NCBI GenBank assembly: GCA_017686895.1 | Contig: GCA_017686895.1_4521.1 | Source of the DNA: a phage | Reading direction: 5' to 3' (one strand) | DNA length: 64,000 nt | Shown: positions 4,199-57,244 of the stretch, one piece after another | Numbering within the stretch: the stretch's first letter is position 1 | Layout of the letters: each line of letters begins with the position of its first letter | Notes under the pieces: model-generated | What the model was told of the DNA's origin: nothing | Seen by the model: only the letters and a program-made list of their open reading frames with translations | Database searches by the model: none | Position numbers and translations under genes: made by a program

Positions 4199-4426
4199 AT
4201 GGCTAAAGTTAGTATTGATGTCGTTGATTATGAATACACCGAAGAAGTTATTCGCAACCGACACCCTGAAGTTCGTATCGATTCAGCCCAAGATTCCAAG
4301 TTTTGGACAACTGAGCTTAATCTGAGTGGTCCTTATGAAGCTGTTAAGAAGTTCATGGTTGAAGAATACTGCGAAGGCATGCACCCAGAAGACGCCGAGT
4401 TTTATGTCAATTTGATTAAAAAATAA
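4199..4426 (+). CDS. hypothetical protein
   Basis: 75-aa ORF with AGAGGAGAA RBS. Confidence 0.5.
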   Translation: MAKVSIDVVDYEYTEEVIRNRHPEVRIDSAQDSKFWTTELNLSGPYEAVKKFMVEEYCEGMHPEDAEFYVNLIKK

Positions 4427-5736: not shown

Positions 5737-6100
5737 GCCCTGGGCGTATGAATACAAGCGTAAATTAATCCCAAATGAAGTACTATTTGGCCCTATTTTA
5801 GCTTTAGCATTTTTAATCTTTATGATTATAGGAGCCGTTTTAGATTCTAGTGAAGTTATATCGTCTGATGCAGCATTTTCATTAATGTTCGTCGCACCAC
5901 TTATTGTACCGTTTTTATTAATGCCTATTAACTGGATGGGATATTGGTACCAAGGACGTCATCACAGGGCCCGATTAAGAGAATGGAAAGTTCAGTGCGC
6001 AAAAGCCCAAGCTCAGTATGATGAAGCTGTTAAAAAGTATGAATATGAAGAAGCTATGGAATTCGTTAAGGAAATAAGATGCAAAAGCCTTAACTCTTAA
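5705..6100 (+). CDS. small membrane protein with EFVKEIRCK tail
   Basis: Two predicted TM helices (LFGPILALAFLIFMIIGAVL, FSLMFVAPLIVPFLLMPINW); start chosen at ATG 5705 (track start 5675 is TTG). Confidence 0.4.
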   Translation: MSKPTLYMPSKPWAYEYKRKLIPNEVLFGPILALAFLIFMIIGAVLDSSEVISSDAAFSLMFVAPLIVPFLLMPINWMGYWYQGRHHRARLREWKVQCAKAQAQYDEAVKKYEYEEAMEFVKEIRCKSLNS

Positions 6101-6141
6101 CCGTATGGCCTTCTCTTGGTGAGAACATTCTAATTTTTATT

Positions 6142-6438
6142 ATGAGTATTGGCATGGGATTTGCCTTTGGATTAGTTGGATTTATTATTGACGGCGTTGT
6201 GTTAGGATTTATAGGGAACACTGGTGGATTCACAGATCAATGGCAGGACTTACGGTATACCCAAGCCTTTGCATCCATCGCATCATTTTGTACTGTAGTC
6301 TATTTTTACTACAATTTTATAAACCATAACAAGAAAAATAAAAAAGTTTACGCTTCTCAAATGATTAGTTATAATGAACTCCTAGCTAGACGTGAAAATG
6401 AAACAATCGAAAACTTTATTAAGGAATGTAGAAAATGA
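6142..6438 (+). CDS. small membrane protein with ENFIKECRK tail
   Basis: Hydrophobic N-terminal half; ends ENFIKECRK. Confidence 0.5.
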   Translation: MSIGMGFAFGLVGFIIDGVVLGFIGNTGGFTDQWQDLRYTQAFASIASFCTVVYFYYNFINHNKKNKKVYASQMISYNELLARRENETIENFIKECRK

Positions 6439-6740
6439 GTAAGATTATTGAAATTAAAGTACCAGAGTTTAATGATGCCAAATCCGCTTCAGATGCAATT
6501 TATAAACTTCTGAATCAAGCTGAACGTATCGAAGAAGAAGCTACAAAGATTGCAGACCAATATGCAGTATCGTTTTCTGTAGGTGATTATGGTAGCGGTC
6601 GTACTTATTATCCTAAGGGTGAAATCGTATCCCAGTGGATGAAAGATGAAATTGAAAATAATGGCGGCGATGTTAAGCGTGAAGGTAATGGATACGTTAT
6701 TACTGAAGGTGCTTGGGTTTCATCTTCTGCGTTGTGCTAA
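6435..6740 (+). CDS. small protein, WVSSS-C tail family member 1
   Basis: Ends GAWVSSSALC; ATGA overlap with upstream gene. Confidence 0.5.
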   Translation: MSKIIEIKVPEFNDAKSASDAIYKLLNQAERIEEEATKIADQYAVSFSVGDYGSGRTYYPKGEIVSQWMKDEIENNGGDVKREGNGYVITEGAWVSSSALC

Positions 6741-6749
6741 GGAATCATT

Positions 6750-7022
6750 ATGTCTAAAGAACAAACCGAACTGGCTGAAGCTGTAGCAAAAATCTATGCA
6801 GTTATTGAGGCTGCCAAAGAAATTGCTGATAAACAAAACACAACATTCGACTTGTATCCAGCTTATGGTATGGGTGGAACGTATTATTCTCCTGGATTCT
6901 TGAAAAAAGAACTTGAGCATTATACCGAACAAGGCAATCCGAATTGGGCCACTGTCAACCAACACTCATATTACACCAGCCTCGAATCAGGTGGTTGGGT
7001 TGCATCTTCTATGGAATGCTAA
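6750..7022 (+). CDS. small protein, WVSSS-C tail family member 2
   Basis: Ends GGWVASSMEC; preceded by TAAGGAATCATTATG junction. Confidence 0.5.
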   Translation: MSKEQTELAEAVAKIYAVIEAAKEIADKQNTTFDLYPAYGMGGTYYSPGFLKKELEHYTEQGNPNWATVNQHSYYTSLESGGWVASSMEC

Positions 7023-7031
7023 GGAAATCAT

Positions 7032-7229
7032 ATGTCTCGTGAATTAGATTGTGCTGTACGTACGGCAGTAGCTGCTCTGGAAAACCTGTTCCAAATTGCA
7101 ACAGAAGAACGCGAAGAAGTTACATTATGGATTGAAGATAACGCAGGTCTGAATCTCCAGGACGCGATCTCATTATCCCACAATAGTATCACTGTTCAAG
7201 GCTGGGTATCATCTAGTTATTCTTGCTAA
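7032..7229 (+). CDS. small protein, WVSSS-C tail family member 3
   Basis: Ends QGWVSSSYSC; preceded by TAAGGAAATCATATG junction. Confidence 0.5.
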   Translation: MSRELDCAVRTAVAALENLFQIATEEREEVTLWIEDNAGLNLQDAISLSHNSITVQGWVSSSYSC

Positions 7230-7233
7230 AACA

Positions 7234-7263
7234 GTTTACAACAAGATAGGGCTATGTTATAGT
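7234..7263 (+). promoter_or_regulatory. early promoter inside a palindrome (approximate coordinates)
   Basis: GTTTAC, 18 bp spacer, TGTTATAGT; -10 flanked by ATAGGGCTA / TAGTCCTAT inverted repeat. Confidence 0.55.
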
Positions 7264-7291
7264 AGTCCTATCAAATTAAATGGAGACAACA

Positions 7292-7532
7292 ATGGTTTAT
7301 TACGAAAGTATCGGAACCGAAGTAGTTGCTAAAACTATTACTCGTGAAAAGTTTGCAAAGATATTCGATATGCGTTATAAAAAAATCTGAACACAAAGGC
7401 ATCCGATTCGAAGATGCGCACTGTACAATTTGCCCTTATAATGAAGACATAAACGGCACAATCGTTCCATTGGTAGAGGCTTCACATGACGACCTCTGGG
7501 ATGAATATAATATCGCATGTCGCGAAATTTAA
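7292..7532 (+). pseudogene. small Cys/His-containing protein gene interrupted by a frameshift at an A7 tract
   Basis: ATG 7292 with good RBS reads 31 codons into A7 run (7379..7385) then stops at 7388..7390; the +1 frame continues as track ORF 7326..7532 (SEHKGIRFEDAHCTICPYNEDINGT...). Confidence 0.4.
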
Positions 7533-7557
7533 GTAATCTAAATTCGAGGAAAATATT

Positions 7558-8514
7558 ATGATGTTAGTTATTGGTTCTCGTGCACTTCACTATCACGGTC
7601 TTATTGATTCTAGCGCTATCAAAAATAGTGATTGGGACTTTATTGCGGACCAATGTTCTTGGAATGCATTCAAAAATCAAATGATGGGTGTATATGTTCA
7701 CCAAGATAACCCTGGTGTCCAAGTTTTCAAATGTTTCCATAATGGACGCGAAACTCATTTTGAAGCATACATCGTTCCGGCTATCACTAACGTTCGCGAA
7801 CTAGTCGGTGAACTCACTCCTGAAGATTTCACGTCTTCTTATGACCTTTTAAAATACGCCAAGAAAAATTTGACTAAAGACCGTTTGAACGGGTTTTACT
7901 GGGCAACTCCTGAGATATGTCTTGCAATTAAGATGTCTCATCGTTTCAAGAAAAATAATCCATTCTTTTTAAAGACTATGAACCATATTCAGTATCTTCG
8001 TGGTAAAGGTGTTACACTGGACGATGAACTTACTGAAATTATGCTGAAACGCCAGAAAGAAACCTTGAACTATGCTCACCCAGTTCTTGACACTTCTAAA
8101 AGCGCATTCTTTAAAGATGACATCTATACGTATGACCATGATACTATTCACGAAGCCATTGCACTAACAGACCGTCCAGCGTATACATTTTATATGAAAG
8201 ATGGTTCTGAAGTCATGACCTCACGCGAGAAGTTCGAATCATTACCAGAAATGGTCAAATTAGCCGGCGTATACGAAGAATCATGTGTACTAGCGTTAGA
8301 ACGTTCTCAGATTCCTAATAACTTTGAAATCCATCCACGTGATAGTTTTATGATGGCATTAGAAAAAGTCTGTACTTCAATCACGTCAGGCTGGTTCCGT
8401 GAATACGCTTGGGAAAACTACAGCAAAGTTGTAAGTATGTACCAAAGCTTAGGACATGACGATTATGTAAAACGTTTTAAACAAAATTTCCATATGGTAA
8501 AACCTTTCAAATAA
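7558..8514 (+). CDS. hypothetical protein
   Basis: 318-aa ORF, ATG-ATG start after GAGGAAAA RBS; N-terminal IGSRALHYHG...DWDF weakly resembles a nucleotidyltransferase motif. Confidence 0.55.
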   Translation: MMLVIGSRALHYHGLIDSSAIKNSDWDFIADQCSWNAFKNQMMGVYVHQDNPGVQVFKCFHNGRETHFEAYIVPAITNVRELVGELTPEDFTSSYDLLKYAKKNLTKDRLNGFYWATPEICLAIKMSHRFKKNNPFFLKTMNHIQYLRGKGVTLDDELTEIMLKRQKETLNYAHPVLDTSKSAFFKDDIYTYDHDTIHEAIALTDRPAYTFYMKDGSEVMTSREKFESLPEMVKLAGVYEESCVLALERSQIPNNFEIHPRDSFMMALEKVCTSITSGWFREYAWENYSKVVSMYQSLGHDDYVKRFKQNFHMVKPFK

Positions 8515-8526
8515 TTTCGCAAAACT

Positions 8527-8556
8527 GTTTACACAATTATAGGACTATGTTATAGT
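8527..8556 (+). promoter_or_regulatory. early promoter inside a palindrome (approximate coordinates)
   Basis: GTTTAC, 18 bp, TGTTATAGT; flanked by ATAGGACTA / TAGTCCTAT. Confidence 0.55.
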
Positions 8557-8584
8557 AGTCCTATTAAAACATGAGGAGAATATT

Positions 8585-8890
8585 ATGAAATTAGGCGAAA
8601 CCAACCGAATTGGTCTTTTAACTATATTTGTATCACTTTTTTACGTAGCTCTTTCTGTTGCAGTATTACAAAAGGCTTACGATATGGATGGTGTTCCTGG
8701 TTTTGTATTCTTATCACCATTTTTATTATTCGTCGGGGCTTTGTTATTATATGCCACGACTAGTTTTGACCATAACGTCTGGGTTAATTATAAATGTAAA
8801 TTGTCTGAAGAAGAACACGCAGAAGCTCGTAAAAAAGCTATTGAATCTACCAATCTAGAAAATTTCATTAAAGAATGTCGAGGAAAATAA
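8585..8890 (+). CDS. small membrane protein with ENFIKECRGK tail
   Basis: Two hydrophobic segments; C-terminal LENFIKECRGK. Confidence 0.5.
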   Translation: MKLGETNRIGLLTIFVSLFYVALSVAVLQKAYDMDGVPGFVFLSPFLLFVGALLLYATTSFDHNVWVNYKCKLSEEEHAEARKKAIESTNLENFIKECRGK

Positions 8891-8891
8891 T

Positions 8892-9578
8892 ATGAATAGT
8901 TCTAAAGTGTTTAATAGTCAAGCTCGTGCAGTAGGTGGTTTTGCTCATAACGTACAAAATGACCAAATCAAAAATGAACCAATGTTCTTTAACTGTGATT
9001 TGAGTTTTGCTTGGGATAACGGCGGTCCTATTACTCGTAGCTTTATTGCCAATCTCCCAATTGATTGGACTAATCAACATGTTGTATTTGATTCTCGGGT
9101 TCATATGCTGATGCCTGGTTGGTATCCTGCTATTCCTGGATATCACCATGACGATGTTCCTCGCCCTGATATTCCAGTCGGCCAACACTTTATTACTGCA
9201 GGACAACCTGACTATGATAACCCTCGTTACCATTCTGAACATATTCTTGGTCTTGTTAACGCTGACGTGTGTCCTACTCATTTTGCAACAGGAACTGCAG
9301 AGTTCAGTCAGATTCCTGATGGCGAACTTATCTATCGCCAATGGCACAAAGAAGTCCTCGAAAAAATTGAAAAAGGTGAACTAGAGAAATGGGAAGCTCC
9401 AGACCGTACTCTTCTTCAGTTTGATTGGCAAACATGGCACACTGGTTCTCGTGCAATTAGTAATGGATGGCGTTGGTTCGGACGTGTATCTCGTAATACA
9501 GACCGAGTTAAAAAGATTACCAATGAAATTCGTGTCAATGCCCAAGTTTATCTGGAATTCCCTATGGAAGGCTGGTAA
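8892..9578 (+). CDS. putative Fe(II)/2-oxoglutarate-dependent oxygenase-like protein
   Basis: Candidate HxD (GYHHDD), distal His (WHTG) and RxS (RVS) in the spacing typical of the 2OG oxygenase fold; motif-level only. Confidence 0.4.
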   Translation: MNSSKVFNSQARAVGGFAHNVQNDQIKNEPMFFNCDLSFAWDNGGPITRSFIANLPIDWTNQHVVFDSRVHMLMPGWYPAIPGYHHDDVPRPDIPVGQHFITAGQPDYDNPRYHSEHILGLVNADVCPTHFATGTAEFSQIPDGELIYRQWHKEVLEKIEKGELEKWEAPDRTLLQFDWQTWHTGSRAISNGWRWFGRVSRNTDRVKKITNEIRVNAQVYLEFPMEGW

Positions 9579-12030: not shown

Positions 12031-12360
12031 ATGAAAACATATCAAGAGTTTATCACTGAAGTTACATTATCTGCGGAACAGAAAGCTGCTATCGAAGAAA
12101 GTAAAAATCCCAAAGTAACATATAAAGTAAATAGTAAAGGCGTTTTTGATGGCTTGGTTCAAGACCCTGAATTGAAAAAAGCTCTTTCTAAAACTAATGC
12201 GTACTTTGCTCCTAAATTTAACACAGCAGGTGTACTTATTGGATTGGATGTATTCAACTCTAAAGGTGTTCTATCTAATGCCTTTGGCTATGCCGCTAAC
12301 AAAATTACCAAAGCCGCATGGGAATCCAATACCAAACAAGCTCAAAAGCCTAGAGTATAA
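12031..12360 (+). CDS. internal head protein (IP-like) with capsid-targeting leader
   Basis: Starts MKTYQEFITE, the same leader as T4 IPII/IPIII. Confidence 0.6.
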   Translation: MKTYQEFITEVTLSAEQKAAIEESKNPKVTYKVNSKGVFDGLVQDPELKKALSKTNAYFAPKFNTAGVLIGLDVFNSKGVLSNAFGYAANKITKAAWESNTKQAQKPRV

Positions 12361-12532
12361 TTCTTGTCTAATAAAGGGAAACGCAACCTCTCCTTATGAA
12401 CGTCGAGTCCTCTGAGTGATGTACCTTTTCCAACCTGTAATAAGGTCGAGCGCAATGCGGTAATGGGTTTACATAGCGAGTCGAAGGACCTAACATGTGC
12501 CACGGAATGGCCCAAACCTTAAGAGAAATAAT

Positions 12533-22140: not shown

Positions 22141-22278
22141 GCTTACAGGAAGTTCTGAGGTAACAAAAGCCATAAAGATGAATAATCATATGGCTTACCT
22201 CAAAGAAGGACACCAGGAACCTACTGAGGGCATAGAAATATTTAAAAATAATGATGTACAAATCAAAGAGGATATGTT

Positions 22279-27987: not shown

Positions 27988-28158
27988 ATGCAAGTTAAAT
28001 TATTGTACCGTTTATTAAAAAATGGCAAGCACGATTGGTATTTGCTTATTAAAACCGATCCAAATTTTTTCTCCGGACAACCATTTACGGTTCGTCCTAC
28101 TAAACGTCAGCTTCGCAAAGCTAAACGTTCTCATCGTAACTTTTATAGAGAATATTGA
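27988..28158 (+). CDS. small basic protein with VRPTKRQLR tail (56 aa)
   Basis: Hand-identified below track cut-off; tail shared with the ORF at 57032. Confidence 0.3.
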   Translation: MQVKLLYRLLKNGKHDWYLLIKTDPNFFSGQPFTVRPTKRQLRKAKRSHRNFYREY

Positions 28159-28159
28159 T

Positions 28160-28573
28160 ATGAATATTTCTGAAACTCGCGGTAAATGGTTCAAGATTGT
28201 TAAAGAAGACGAAGAACTACAAGTCAAGTTTCCTGAATTAAAGAAAGGAACAATCCTCAAGGTAATTGGTACTACTACCGAAGATGGTTATGGCGACCAT
28301 GGCATTATCGAAGTGATGTTGAACACAGGTGAGAAACTTTGCATCTATGACCGTGATACTTCTCTTTGGTGCTTCTGGGAATCCCATTCAATAGATGAAC
28401 TCGAAGAAATTGACCAAGTAGTTTGTGATGGTGGACTTGGTGAATTCGAAGGTGAACGTATTTCTTATGCTTTAGCTAAATTAGCTGGTCAAGAAAATAA
28501 TGACGGTTATGAAGGTAATCTGATGCAAGCCGCCGCGGAATACATTGAATATTTAGAACGACGTTTAAGTTAA
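28160..28573 (+). CDS. hypothetical protein
   Basis: ATG 28160 (MNISETRGKW...) inside track ORF 28022..28573, whose N-terminal extension looks non-protein-like. Confidence 0.45.
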   Translation: MNISETRGKWFKIVKEDEELQVKFPELKKGTILKVIGTTTEDGYGDHGIIEVMLNTGEKLCIYDRDTSLWCFWESHSIDELEEIDQVVCDGGLGEFEGERISYALAKLAGQENNDGYEGNLMQAAAEYIEYLERRLS

Positions 28574-32322: not shown

Positions 32323-32464
32323 ATCCTATTTCTAATATAATCCATTAGAATCTTCACTTCACTATCTCCTTGTGCCCCTCTCAAATCAAAAATATTTTCA
32401 TAAACCAGTTTACATCCTCGATAGATATGTTAAGATTAAACCATCTGCTATAGAGGAAAACAAA

Positions 32465-35875: not shown

Positions 35876-35914
35876 GAGAAATCGATTTAGGTATTTTCTG
35901 AGAGGTGCTTATGC

Positions 35915-36088
35915 GTGACGAACATCCCGACTTCTGAAAATTTCGATAAAATCCGTAAAGGCAAAGCAGAAAGAACGAGACGTTTTAAAGAGTCTTATGA
36001 TAAAGCTAAAGCCGAAGGAACTATTACATACAAGCCCATTCGATTTAAAAGTTCAAATGAGCCTCTGTACGGTGTACTATGTGGATAG
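35915..36088 (+). CDS. possible small basic ORF (57 aa, GTG start)
   Basis: Hand-identified; ends at the hairpin terminator; weak support. Confidence 0.25.
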   Translation: MTNIPTSENFDKIRKGKAERTRRFKESYDKAKAEGTITYKPIRFKSSNEPLYGVLCG

Positions 36089-36111
36089 GAACTCTTCGGA
36101 GTTCCTTTTTT
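36088..36111 (+). terminator. intrinsic terminator
   Basis: GGAACTC-TTCG-GAGTTCC then TTTTTT. Confidence 0.65.
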
Positions 36112-36157
36112 GCTTTATAAACGGATGATAGAATGAATTAACTAATGAGGAAATAAT

Positions 36158-40014: not shown

Positions 40015-40019
40015 TAATT

Positions 40020-40910
40020 ATGAATTTAATATATCTTATAACCTTTTATAATCGTGAGATTAAAAATGAATACCCGTGTTATTATATAGGTTCTAAAGTT
40101 TCGTGTCATTTTAATGGAAAGGATATTATTGAAGATTCTACCGGTAAAATATATACCGGTAGTGTTAATTCCTCGTATTCTCCTTTATATAACAGATTAA
40201 TAGACCAAGGCGAATATTCTGTAAAAATTTTAGGCGAAACCACATTAGACCCTAGAAGAATAGAAAGACTATTCCAACTCAATGTTAAAGCCGTTTCAAA
40301 TGAAAAATATTTTAATAAGGCTTATGCTAACGAGAAGTCTAGAATATCAGCTAAAGGATATGCACCGTATAAAAATTTAAAAACAGGCAAAATAGTAAAA
40401 CTTTCTAAAAACGAAATAAACGAAGATTACGTCGGTGTTAGAAAAAATTGCAAATTGTCGGAGAATCATTTAAACGCAATTAGAGAATTTCAAAAAACAT
40501 ATTGGACCAAAGAACGAAGAGAGAAAGTTTCTATTCGTTCTAAAAAAATGTTTAACGATAGAGATTTTGCTTTAAAATTTAAAGATATAATGAATTCTCC
40601 TAATGTTAAAGATAAAATAAAAATATCTAAAACATTGTATTGGTCTAAACCTGAAAATAGAGCAAAGGCCTCTATCGCAGCTTCGAAAAGAAATGCAACC
40701 AAAGAATTTAAGGATAAATTCAGAAAATCTAAAGCTAGAGGTACATGGATATTTCATGAACAAAAATTAAAGGAATTGTGGATTGCTTTAGGAAAACCAA
40801 GTTATATTACATTTAGAAAACATGCAATTCAGCATGGTTTTAATGATGAATCATACCAAGGTGCTATCCGGTCTTGGACAAATTATTATGCTAATAGGAA
40901 ACCTAAATGA
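40020..40910 (+). mobile_element. free-standing GIY-YIG homing endonuclease gene (seg-like)
   Basis: N-terminus MNLIYLITFYNREIKNEYPCYYIGS gives the GIY-(10 aa)-YIG spacing; Lys-rich C-terminal DNA-binding region; markedly AT-rich; inserted between rpbA and 45. Confidence 0.6.
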
Positions 40911-41593
40911 AACTTAGCCGTGAAACCGTAAATATTCTGAAAAACTTCGCTTCTATTAACTCTGGCATTCTGCTGAGTCAAGGTAAATTTATTATGACTC
41001 GTGCAGTTAATGGCACCACTTATGCGGAAGCAAATATCTCTGATGAAATTGATTTTGACGTAGCACTTTATGATTTGAATAGCTTCTTAAGCATTTTGAG
41101 TCTAGTGTCTGACGATGCTGAAATTTCAATGCACACTGATGGTAATATTAAAATTGCAGACACACGTTCCACAGTTTATTGGCCTGCCGCTGACAAGAGC
41201 ACCATTGTTTTTCCTAATAAGCCAATTCAATTCCCAGTGGCTTCTGTGATTACTGAAATTAAAGCCGAAGACCTTCAACAATTGCTTCGAGTTTCACGTG
41301 GTCTTCAAATTGATACAATTGCTATTACAAATAAAGATGGTAAAATTGTTATCAATGGCTATAATAAAGTTGAAGATTCTGGACTAACTCGTCCTAAGTA
41401 TTCTTTGACTCTTACCGATTATGATGGTTCTAACAACTTTAACTTCGTAATCAATATGGCTAATATGAAAATCCAGCCAGGTAACTATAAAGTAATGTTG
41501 TGGGGAGCTGGTGATAAAGTTGCAGCCAAGTTTGAAAGCTCTCAAGTAAGTTATGTTATTGCAATGGAAGCCGATTCTACTCACGACTTCTAA
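40907..41593 (+). CDS. 45: sliding clamp gp45
   Basis: 228 aa; MKLSRETVNILKNFASINSGILL ... matches T4 gp45. Confidence 0.95.
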   Translation: MKLSRETVNILKNFASINSGILLSQGKFIMTRAVNGTTYAEANISDEIDFDVALYDLNSFLSILSLVSDDAEISMHTDGNIKIADTRSTVYWPAADKSTIVFPNKPIQFPVASVITEIKAEDLQQLLRVSRGLQIDTIAITNKDGKIVINGYNKVEDSGLTRPKYSLTLTDYDGSNNFNFVINMANMKIQPGNYKVMLWGAGDKVAAKFESSQVSYVIAMEADSTHDF

Positions 41594-49289: not shown

Positions 49290-49335
49290 TAATTTAAGTA
49301 AGACCTGCAAAAACCATCGCATCAATTAACGCGAG

Positions 49336-50505
49336 ATGCAAAAAATGAATACTTTTAAAATCGGAACGAATTTTGATTTAGCTCTTCTTGATAAAATCGT
49401 AGAGCTCAATAAAACCTATCCTAATAGCTTGATAAACGAAGTATATGGCTCTACAAGAGAAATGGCTTTTGTAGCAGCCAGACCTGATTTTAGGCTTCCT
49501 GACGTTGACAAAAAGATGTTAGAAGATTACGTTAAACGTTGTAACGAATTAGGTATTTGCTTTAACTATACACTCAACACGATAAATCCTGGTTCAAAAA
49601 GAGAACTAGTTGAGTGGAAGAAGAAAGCTATTCAGGATTATGTTCAGTATCTTTGGTCAATAGGCGTATGGCGTATTACTATCGCTAACCCTGTTGTTAT
49701 GGAAATTGTTCGTGAAGTCAATAAAGATATTGAGATTGAAGTTTCAACAATTCTACATGTCGATGCGGTAACTCAAATCAAATACTTACATGACCAATAT
49801 AACATCAAAAAGGTCTGTTGCGGAATTCATAAGAACCGTTCAGTTTCTTTCCTGAAGCGTGCAGCAGAGTTTTGCAATAAGAACAATATAATATTTGAAG
49901 TTCTTGTAAATGAGTTCTGTTCTAATGCTGGTAAAGGGTATACAACACATTGTAGTTATCGTGACTCTTGCTATATTTTCCATAGTACTGATGTTACAGC
50001 TGATGATGCTAAATCCTTAAATGGATATCCAATGCAACACTGCATTAAAGCTCGTGATACAGACCCATTTAACTGGTTGAGAACTCGTTTTGTTCGTCCT
50101 CAAGATTTGAAACTTTATAATGATATTGGTATCACTCAATTCAAAGTTTCAGGACGTACAGGTAGCACAGACTACATTTTGAAAGTTCTTGAAGCATACG
50201 CTTCTGAAAAGTTTGAAGGTAATTTGTTAGAACTGTGGAAGCCTTTAGAGACTATTTTCACTCTTGAAAATGAGACTGAGTTTTCACATACAGTAAATAT
50301 TGAAACCTCTTTGTTAGATGGCTTTTTAGAAAAAAGGTGGTTCAGACATCCAGATTTTGATTGTGCTAATGAAATCTGTGGGTCAACGTGTACATATTGT
50401 GAAAGGTATTATAAACGTCAATTATCTAAAAACGGGTTAGCAGAAAACTCCATATCTATTATTGATATAACTAACTCTGATGACGCTTTGAGGTACCCGG
50501 AATGA
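49336..50505 (+). CDS. Cys-rich protein with peptidase-U32-like features (tentative)
   Basis: EVLVNEFCSNAGKGYTTHCSYRDSC resembles the U32 signature region; many cysteines including C-terminal CGSTCTYC (Cx3Cx2C); family not confirmed. Confidence 0.3.
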   Translation: MQKMNTFKIGTNFDLALLDKIVELNKTYPNSLINEVYGSTREMAFVAARPDFRLPDVDKKMLEDYVKRCNELGICFNYTLNTINPGSKRELVEWKKKAIQDYVQYLWSIGVWRITIANPVVMEIVREVNKDIEIEVSTILHVDAVTQIKYLHDQYNIKKVCCGIHKNRSVSFLKRAAEFCNKNNIIFEVLVNEFCSNAGKGYTTHCSYRDSCYIFHSTDVTADDAKSLNGYPMQHCIKARDTDPFNWLRTRFVRPQDLKLYNDIGITQFKVSGRTGSTDYILKVLEAYASEKFEGNLLELWKPLETIFTLENETEFSHTVNIETSLLDGFLEKRWFRHPDFDCANEICGSTCTYCERYYKRQLSKNGLAENSISIIDITNSDDALRYPE

Positions 50506-56842: not shown

Positions 56843-57030
56843 GCAAATTAACTAAAGTTACTTTTATCGGTTGGTTTAAAAGCGGTGAGATGTTCACTAA
56901 AGATATCATGTTATCAGGTGATCGCGAAGAAATCGAGTGGGTTACGGTACAACTTGCTGAAGTGAACAATGCATTAGTTAAAGCATTTATTAATGACGAG
57001 AAAGTTTTTGAAGCTGATTTCAGAGGATAA
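56839..57030 (+). CDS. hypothetical protein
   Basis: ATGA overlap start within track ORF 56818..57030. Confidence 0.45.
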   Translation: MSKLTKVTFIGWFKSGEMFTKDIMLSGDREEIEWVTVQLAEVNNALVKAFINDEKVFEADFRG

Positions 57031-57031
57031 T

Positions 57032-57244
57032 ATGTATTCAACTGTGTTTAAACCATCAACATACGAATTTGCATCAACTACACAATGGAAAGCTCTTATT
57101 CTGGAAGGATGGGAACTAATGATGGACTGCGAAGCATCTGAAAAGTTTCCACACGGCAAAGTGGACTTCGTTAAATTTGCTGTACGTCCGACTAAACGAC
57201 AGATTCGTCAAGAAAAACGCAAATTTCGAAAAAGTTTAAAATAG
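57032..57244 (+). CDS. small basic protein with VRPTKRQIR tail
   Basis: ATG 57032 within track ORF 56993..57244; tail resembles the ORF at 27988. Confidence 0.45.
   Translation: MYSTVFKPSTYEFASTTQWKALILEGWELMMDCEASEKFPHGKVDFVKFAVRPTKRQIRQEKRKFRKSLK

Follow-up and report, generated by a model that had tools for sequence, protein, structure and literature searches.

The locus described here lies on the plus strand of a 64,000-nucleotide stretch of phage DNA, referred to below as the window, and consists of a short gene whose reading frame is interrupted at a run of seven adenines. The 5' part of the gene (7292..7390) begins at an ATG at 7292, which is preceded at a distance of 6 nt by a Shine-Dalgarno sequence, GGAG (7282..7285, by direct reading), and encodes MVYYESIGTEVVAKTITREKFAKIFDMRYKKI before it is terminated by a TGA at 7388-7390. 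The first-pass annotation had described this ORF as well initiated and as stopping after 31 codons just past the A7 run; the start, the ribosome-binding site and the position of the stop were as described, but the length was not, as there are 32 sense codons, of which codons 1-31 are those of the intact protein and codon 32 (ATC), like the stop, is the out-of-frame result of the extra A. An in-frame ATG is also present upstream at 7280, from which the list of open reading frames gives an ORF of 36 aa. The A7 run itself (7379..7385) comprises the codons for Lys30 and Lys31 plus one extra A, and is flanked by T7378 and T7386. The 3' part of the gene (7386..7532) is, as had been proposed, in the +1 frame, where 48 codons corresponding to Ser32 to Ile79 of the intact protein (SEHKGIRFEDAHCTICPYNEDING...ACREI) stay open to a TAA at 7530-7532. 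The +1 frame is already open 5' of the tract, reading ...SEHKGIRFEDAHCTICPYNEDINGTIVPLVEASHDDLWDEYNIACREI on its way to the same TAA. Deletion of one A from the A7 run fuses the two frames into a protein of 79 aa, and this prediction of the first-pass annotation is borne out by the identity of the fused protein to a database entry described below. Separate expression of the 3' part was rejected: the sole upstream start in its frame is a TTG at 7326, which has no Shine-Dalgarno sequence and directly follows a TAG, and initiation there would add 19 junk residues to a product that is missing the N-terminal strands.

The AT-rich window contains four A7, 47 A6, 14 T6 and one T8 run, and an A7 run is by itself unremarkable in it. 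The split-gene pattern, however, is more than chance: once fused, the protein aligns with relatives along its entire length of 79 residues, in one frame and at 100% identity (tblastn E=1e-47). Single-frame matches to the fused protein were found by tblastn in 229 phage records, and it is 100% identical to AIM50711.1 of Shigella phage Shf125875 and 96% identical to RB69ORF135c (AAP76037.1). It also matched phrog_3723, a family with an unknown function, over residues 1-79 (E=1.1e-36), and no Pfam family was matched by it. We identify the gene from its sequence as the RB69ORF135c orthologue, which encodes an early accessory protein of 79 aa with no known function. Members of this family are encoded by a single uninterrupted frame of about 76-89 codons, and since the frame in the window breaks at 7385, the locus would be a disrupted allele, or pseudogene, of the RB69ORF135c/phrog_3723 family. 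The earlier proposal of a gene split by a frameshift at A7 is thus upheld, with an in-frame A6 in the relatives.

The window comes from a T-even phage of the RB69 type (genus Mosigvirus), and its first 25 kb shares 98.0% identity with Escherichia phage CCU7 and 96.2% with RB69. Several segments of the window had no megablast alignment to CCU7, its closest catalogued relative (6096-6345, 12062-12493, 28148-28565, 35876-36156, 40018-40932 and 57021-57223); they presumably reflect the mosaic replacements or insertions that are usual in accessory regions of T-even phages. The variable accessory cluster to which the frameshifted gene belongs lies between e.3 and e.2 in RB69. The gene has an ORF136c orthologue upstream and an ORF134c orthologue downstream, an order that is common to Shf125875, RB69 and CCU7. 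The RB69ORF134c orthologue (7558..8514, plus strand) encodes an intact 318-aa protein with DUF7277 and DUF7275 from a GAGG ribosome-binding site of its own, probably on a transcript shared with the frameshifted gene. An exact copy of this 318-aa protein is recorded as EHH5496226.1 (locus tag J7D59_002162) from an assembly labelled Escherichia coli. Exact copies of window proteins, this one among them, occur on contigs of about 168-172 kb in isolate assemblies labelled Escherichia coli and Shigella sonnei, indicating that such bacterial assemblies include complete genomes of lytic T4-like phages. The window itself probably stems from a phage contig in an assembly of this kind. The collection of complete E. 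coli genomes gave no match.

A putative early-type sigma-70 promoter on the plus strand (7235..7263; TTTACA, a 17-nt spacer, TATAGT and an upstream TG) was identified just before the gene by a consensus scan, with matches at 10 of 12 positions. Near-identical early-type sequences (TTTAC[GA], 17 nt, TATA[AG]T) recur across the accessory cluster, at 6347-6375, at 7235-7263 and at 8528-8556, and their distribution suggests that the cluster may be divided into several short early transcription units. Immediately upstream of the frameshifted gene, at 6435-7229, are three small genes in tandem (101, 90 and 65 aa) with a common C-terminal motif, G(A/G)WV(S/A)SS..C, which look like a local paralogue family. 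The 101-aa and 90-aa proteins match phrog_899 and the 65-aa protein matches phrog_4882, both of unknown function. The first of these genes is one intact 101-aa gene in the window, Shf125875 and CCU7, while the corresponding segment of RB69 (AY303349, 2203-2509, equivalent to window 6435-6740) is annotated as two short ORFs, ORF139c and ORF138c, and was split over two frames in a tblastn alignment. The RB69 pair is a second frame break in the accessory cluster, in this instance in the reference genome.

The gene to which the two fragments belong is real, and its intact alleles are under purifying selection, with a pooled pN/pS of 0.08 over 12 distinct alleles. The family is a small one: phmmer, run exhaustively against 1.84 billion representative proteins, returned only 13 clusters, of which two were spurious repeat matches, two were truncated frameshift variants of an RB69ORF135c-type gene and the rest were proteins of 76-89 aa. 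The spurious matches, to proteins of 5774 aa and 238 aa, were due to a repeat of the NESLHGTINPV type and were discarded. The family clusters have conserved residues on both sides of the tract, and most of the conserved ones (F39, C44, P48, P59 and I79) are in the 3' part. An AlphaFold2 model of the intact protein (pLDDT 90.9) has one compact domain spanning residues 1-79, predicted to be a small alpha/beta domain of four strands and three helices with an orphan fold. Since truncation at 32 residues would cost the predicted domain two of its four strands and two of its three helices, we infer from the model that the A7 allele is a null allele.

To determine how the tract length of the window relates to that of other phages, we compared it with a broad set of relatives. 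In alignments of the window with Shf125875 and RB69, A7 was present only in the window and A6 in the other two, and all five relatives that were compared for homopolymer length also have A6. When an 81-nt query containing A7 was searched against INPHARED, none of the 145 matching records was identical to it, while 103 of the 148 records matched by the equivalent 80-nt query with A6 were 100% identical. The A6 query was spanned by all 148, and the remaining matches, among those examined in an evenly spaced listing, differed by substitutions only and had no indel in the aligned part. A6 is likewise present in all of a further 16 contigs retrieved for their intact copy of the gene; these came from NCBI, Logan, JGI metagenomes and IMG/VR (four of them metagenome or IMG/VR contigs). 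A scan of IMG/VR with long flanks found nothing, and with shorter flanks found one contig, also with A6. The orthologues with an intact frame are thus a single 79-aa gene at this position rather than two separate genes, and the window differs from all comparable relatives by a gain of exactly one unit within the mononucleotide run, with identical flanks. Furthermore, once one A is removed, no nucleotide separates the window allele from those in GCA_033759635.1 and Logan SRR24392125. These comparisons show A6 to be the ancestral state and the insertion of an A to be the only change in the window allele, and the lack of any other difference marks the insertion as a recent event.

The first-pass annotation had offered three causes for the interruption, namely a sequencing error, a recent inactivation or slippage-dependent expression. 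The main rival to a real mutation is the first of these, in which A6 and an intact 79-aa gene are present in the phage itself and the extra A is a miscall in the reads or the consensus. Homopolymers are the classic site of indel miscalls, and A7 has been seen in one sample only. In addition, the phage record ECCR664 has A5 at this same tract, but four genes in it (this one and three others) are frame-broken within 3.3 kb, which makes that record unreliable and its A5 an apparent length error. Against a miscall, one database entry, Logan contig SRR14069075_699, has a gene for exactly the 32-aa truncated product, and its 2,334 bp are 100% identical to window 6711-9044 with A7 included. The A7 run has thus been reproduced by an independent k-mer assembly from raw reads. 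It is important to note that the reads behind this contig may also be those from which the source of the window was assembled, in which case an artefact of the assembler or of polishing would be ruled out, but a systematic read error would not. The contig is also short (2.3 kb), which means that coverage may be modest, and no contig from run SRR14069075 has the complete 2.7-kb DNA polymerase gene; together these observations hint at modest coverage or a mixed population. No A6/A7 mixture was evident in that run, as none of its contigs was among the 10 places listed (of 14 contigs read) with the intact 79-aa product, although this is weak evidence. Repeats within the window did not explain the ends of SRR14069075_699.

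The remainder of the window was used to judge how error-prone its assembly is. In a census of homopolymers (A or T of at least 5, G or C of at least 4) for which a comparison was possible with two or more of the five relatives, 223 of 230 runs were the same length in all, six were polymorphic with the window length shared by another phage, and a single run, the one at 7379-7385, had a length unique to the window. Since this was the only window-unique run among 230, the assembly is not prone to homopolymer errors, and the 229 runs without a unique length include the other three A7 and the 47 A6 runs. A second scan compared the plus-strand stop-to-stop ORFs of at least 60 aa in the 64 kb with CCU7 for frame breaks. 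The sole annotated gene found to be broken was the RB69ORF135c orthologue; the second ORF flagged reflected an intergenic 1-nt indel near 32395, and the other 1-nt indels in the DNA alignment to CCU7 were intergenic or were compensated alignment noise. With 47 A6, 14 T6, four A7 and one T8 runs in the window, several errors of this kind would be likely from an error-prone platform. In view of these results, we consider a miscalled A to be unlikely, if still the most serious competing explanation, and A7 to be probably a real mutation that is present in the DNA and not just in the reads. The recent inactivation that was among the three causes first offered is accordingly the favored one, based on an allele that is otherwise nucleotide-identical to intact alleles, on the recurrence of A7 in a second assembly and on the census, in which every other homopolymer length is shared with a relative.

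Two other sets of A runs also differ in length between relatives. The runs at 49309-49313 and 49340-49345 vary widely in length among relatives, from A5 to A7 and from A6 to A8, respectively. They are upstream of or at the start of a 389-aa ORF (49336-50505; peptidase U32-like in the CCU7 annotation), in its leader and in the spacer between the Shine-Dalgarno sequence and the ATG, and variable A runs near 49336 could modulate translation initiation. In phage TH12 (MT446390, marked UNVERIFIED), the A runs equivalent to window 4418-4423 and 22244-22248 are one base shorter than in the window and the other four relatives, which may reflect errors in the TH12 record.

Other lesions were found in the RB69ORF135c orthologue. 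A5 is present at the tract in ENA ERZ12298799 (a SPAdes metagenome node; 930-1170) and in Logan SRR11805607 (439-679), on a different allele background, and in both the part of the downstream gene that lies on the contig is intact. An 11-bp deletion (AAAGGCATCCG) lies just 3' of the tract in ERZ28634654 (an ENA scaffold; 326-556), where the neighboring genes are all intact. The known tract-length variants therefore amount to A7 once and A5 in one metagenomic lineage and one unreliable record, with A6 in about 150 genomes. These sequences demonstrate natural loss of the gene, which is dispensable in at least some settings, and it is plausible that the A6 tract is a mutational hot spot, in keeping with the behavior of mononucleotide runs in T-even phages.

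The occurrence of three apparently independent lesions in otherwise clean contigs, two of them at the tract (A7 and A5) and one an 11-bp deletion, also raises the question of whether loss of the gene is selected, with the tract acting as a hypermutable on/off contingency site and loss of ORF135c being advantageous on some hosts. We regard this as very unlikely in view of the retention of A6 in the approximately 150 catalogued genomes and the strong purifying selection on intact alleles noted above. Moreover, A6 is short for a contingency tract, and lesions this infrequent could be neutral mutational noise at a hot spot of a known kind. ORF135c was mentioned in no paper of the literature searched, and no phenotype or link to defence has been reported for it. 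A more specific form of this idea, that the Lys-Lys A6 tract is a recurrent mutational switch in Mosigvirus, with loss selected where a host defence senses or is triggered by the protein and reversible via the same tract, is speculative and in our judgement very unlikely indeed.

The third cause that had been offered, slippage-dependent expression, supposes that the A7 allele still yields the 79-aa protein, either by +1 ribosomal frameshifting or by RNA polymerase dropping one A, as a programmed event or as useful leakiness. Re-pairing of tRNA-Lys from AAA 7382-7384 to AAA 7383-7385 would be perfect and would restore the exact ancestral sequence, and with some E. coli reporters non-programmed frameshift suppression reaches a reported 1-10% (PMC10861913). 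However, the requirement for a frameshift is not conserved among the orthologues: none of the 145 records matching the A7 query has that sequence, and all other relatives with a trustworthy assembly encode the protein in one frame. The Lys-Lys pair is itself replaced in distant homologues (YSEY, YKLF and YSEF), which argues that the tract is not a selected element, and a -1 shift leads into the wrong frame. When the sequence at AAA-AAA-A was read by eye for stimulators, no Shine-Dalgarno-like element was found upstream, and the A-site codon, AUC, is neither a stop nor a rare codon. There was also no local RNA structure at the tract (z=+1.42; 189 of 200 shuffles fold at least as well). T-even phages transcribe with the host RNA polymerase. 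By the thresholds published for E. coli reporters, a run of A7 is too short for transcriptional slippage, which was undetectable with E. coli RNA polymerase below T7 or A8 and gave no deletions on the poly(A) runs tested (PMC6260861). Slippage-dependent expression is accordingly unsupported and, we believe, extremely improbable, and although this background suppression means that a trace of full-length product may be made, it would represent leakiness rather than a mechanism.

Taken together, the interruption is probably the result of a recent A6-to-A7 replication-slippage mutation that inactivated a dispensable early accessory gene. We propose that slipped-strand mispairing in DNA replication added one A to the Lys-Lys tract AAAAAA, an origin that we infer from the form of the change, that translation would as a result end after 32 residues, and that the partial alpha/beta domain so produced would amount to a null allele; the gene would evidently be dispensable for growth of the isolate. 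For annotation, the short ORFs at 7292-7390 and 7326-7532 are best described as one frameshifted pseudogene of the RB69ORF135c family, being neither two genes nor a recoding site. That a conserved small early protein with an orphan predicted fold can be dispensed with gives work on T-even accessory genes a modest lead. The event itself is of an ordinary, well-known kind and opens no new mechanistic question.

The closest known counterparts of the locus are RB69ORF135c and its orthologues in Mosigvirus (such as AIM50711.1) in phrog_3723, which have the same gene, neighbors, upstream early promoter and ribosome-binding site as the window; they differ from it in having A6, whereas the A7 of the window allele limits its product to 32 residues. 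The locus also resembles programmed slippage and frameshift sites, such as those of dnaX, prfB and IS elements and the potyvirus GA6 site (PMC5009743), in having an A run at the junction of two overlapping frames that jointly encode one protein. Unlike those sites, its frameshift is not conserved, it has no stimulators, its run is below the threshold of E. coli RNA polymerase and an in-frame A6 is the norm among its relatives. With respect to the mutation, the relevant precedent is a classical one. Frameshifts at mononucleotide runs in T-even phages, such as those at the A-run hot spots of T4 rII and lysozyme, are explained by the slipped-strand model of Streisinger. Those mutants were genetically selected, whereas the window allele is a natural variant of an uncharacterised accessory gene that is known as a sequence record and whose origin in replication is deduced from its sequence. 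Common to both is a one-unit gain in an A run, in a genome of the T4 family with a gp43-type polymerase, that would produce a simple frameshift null.
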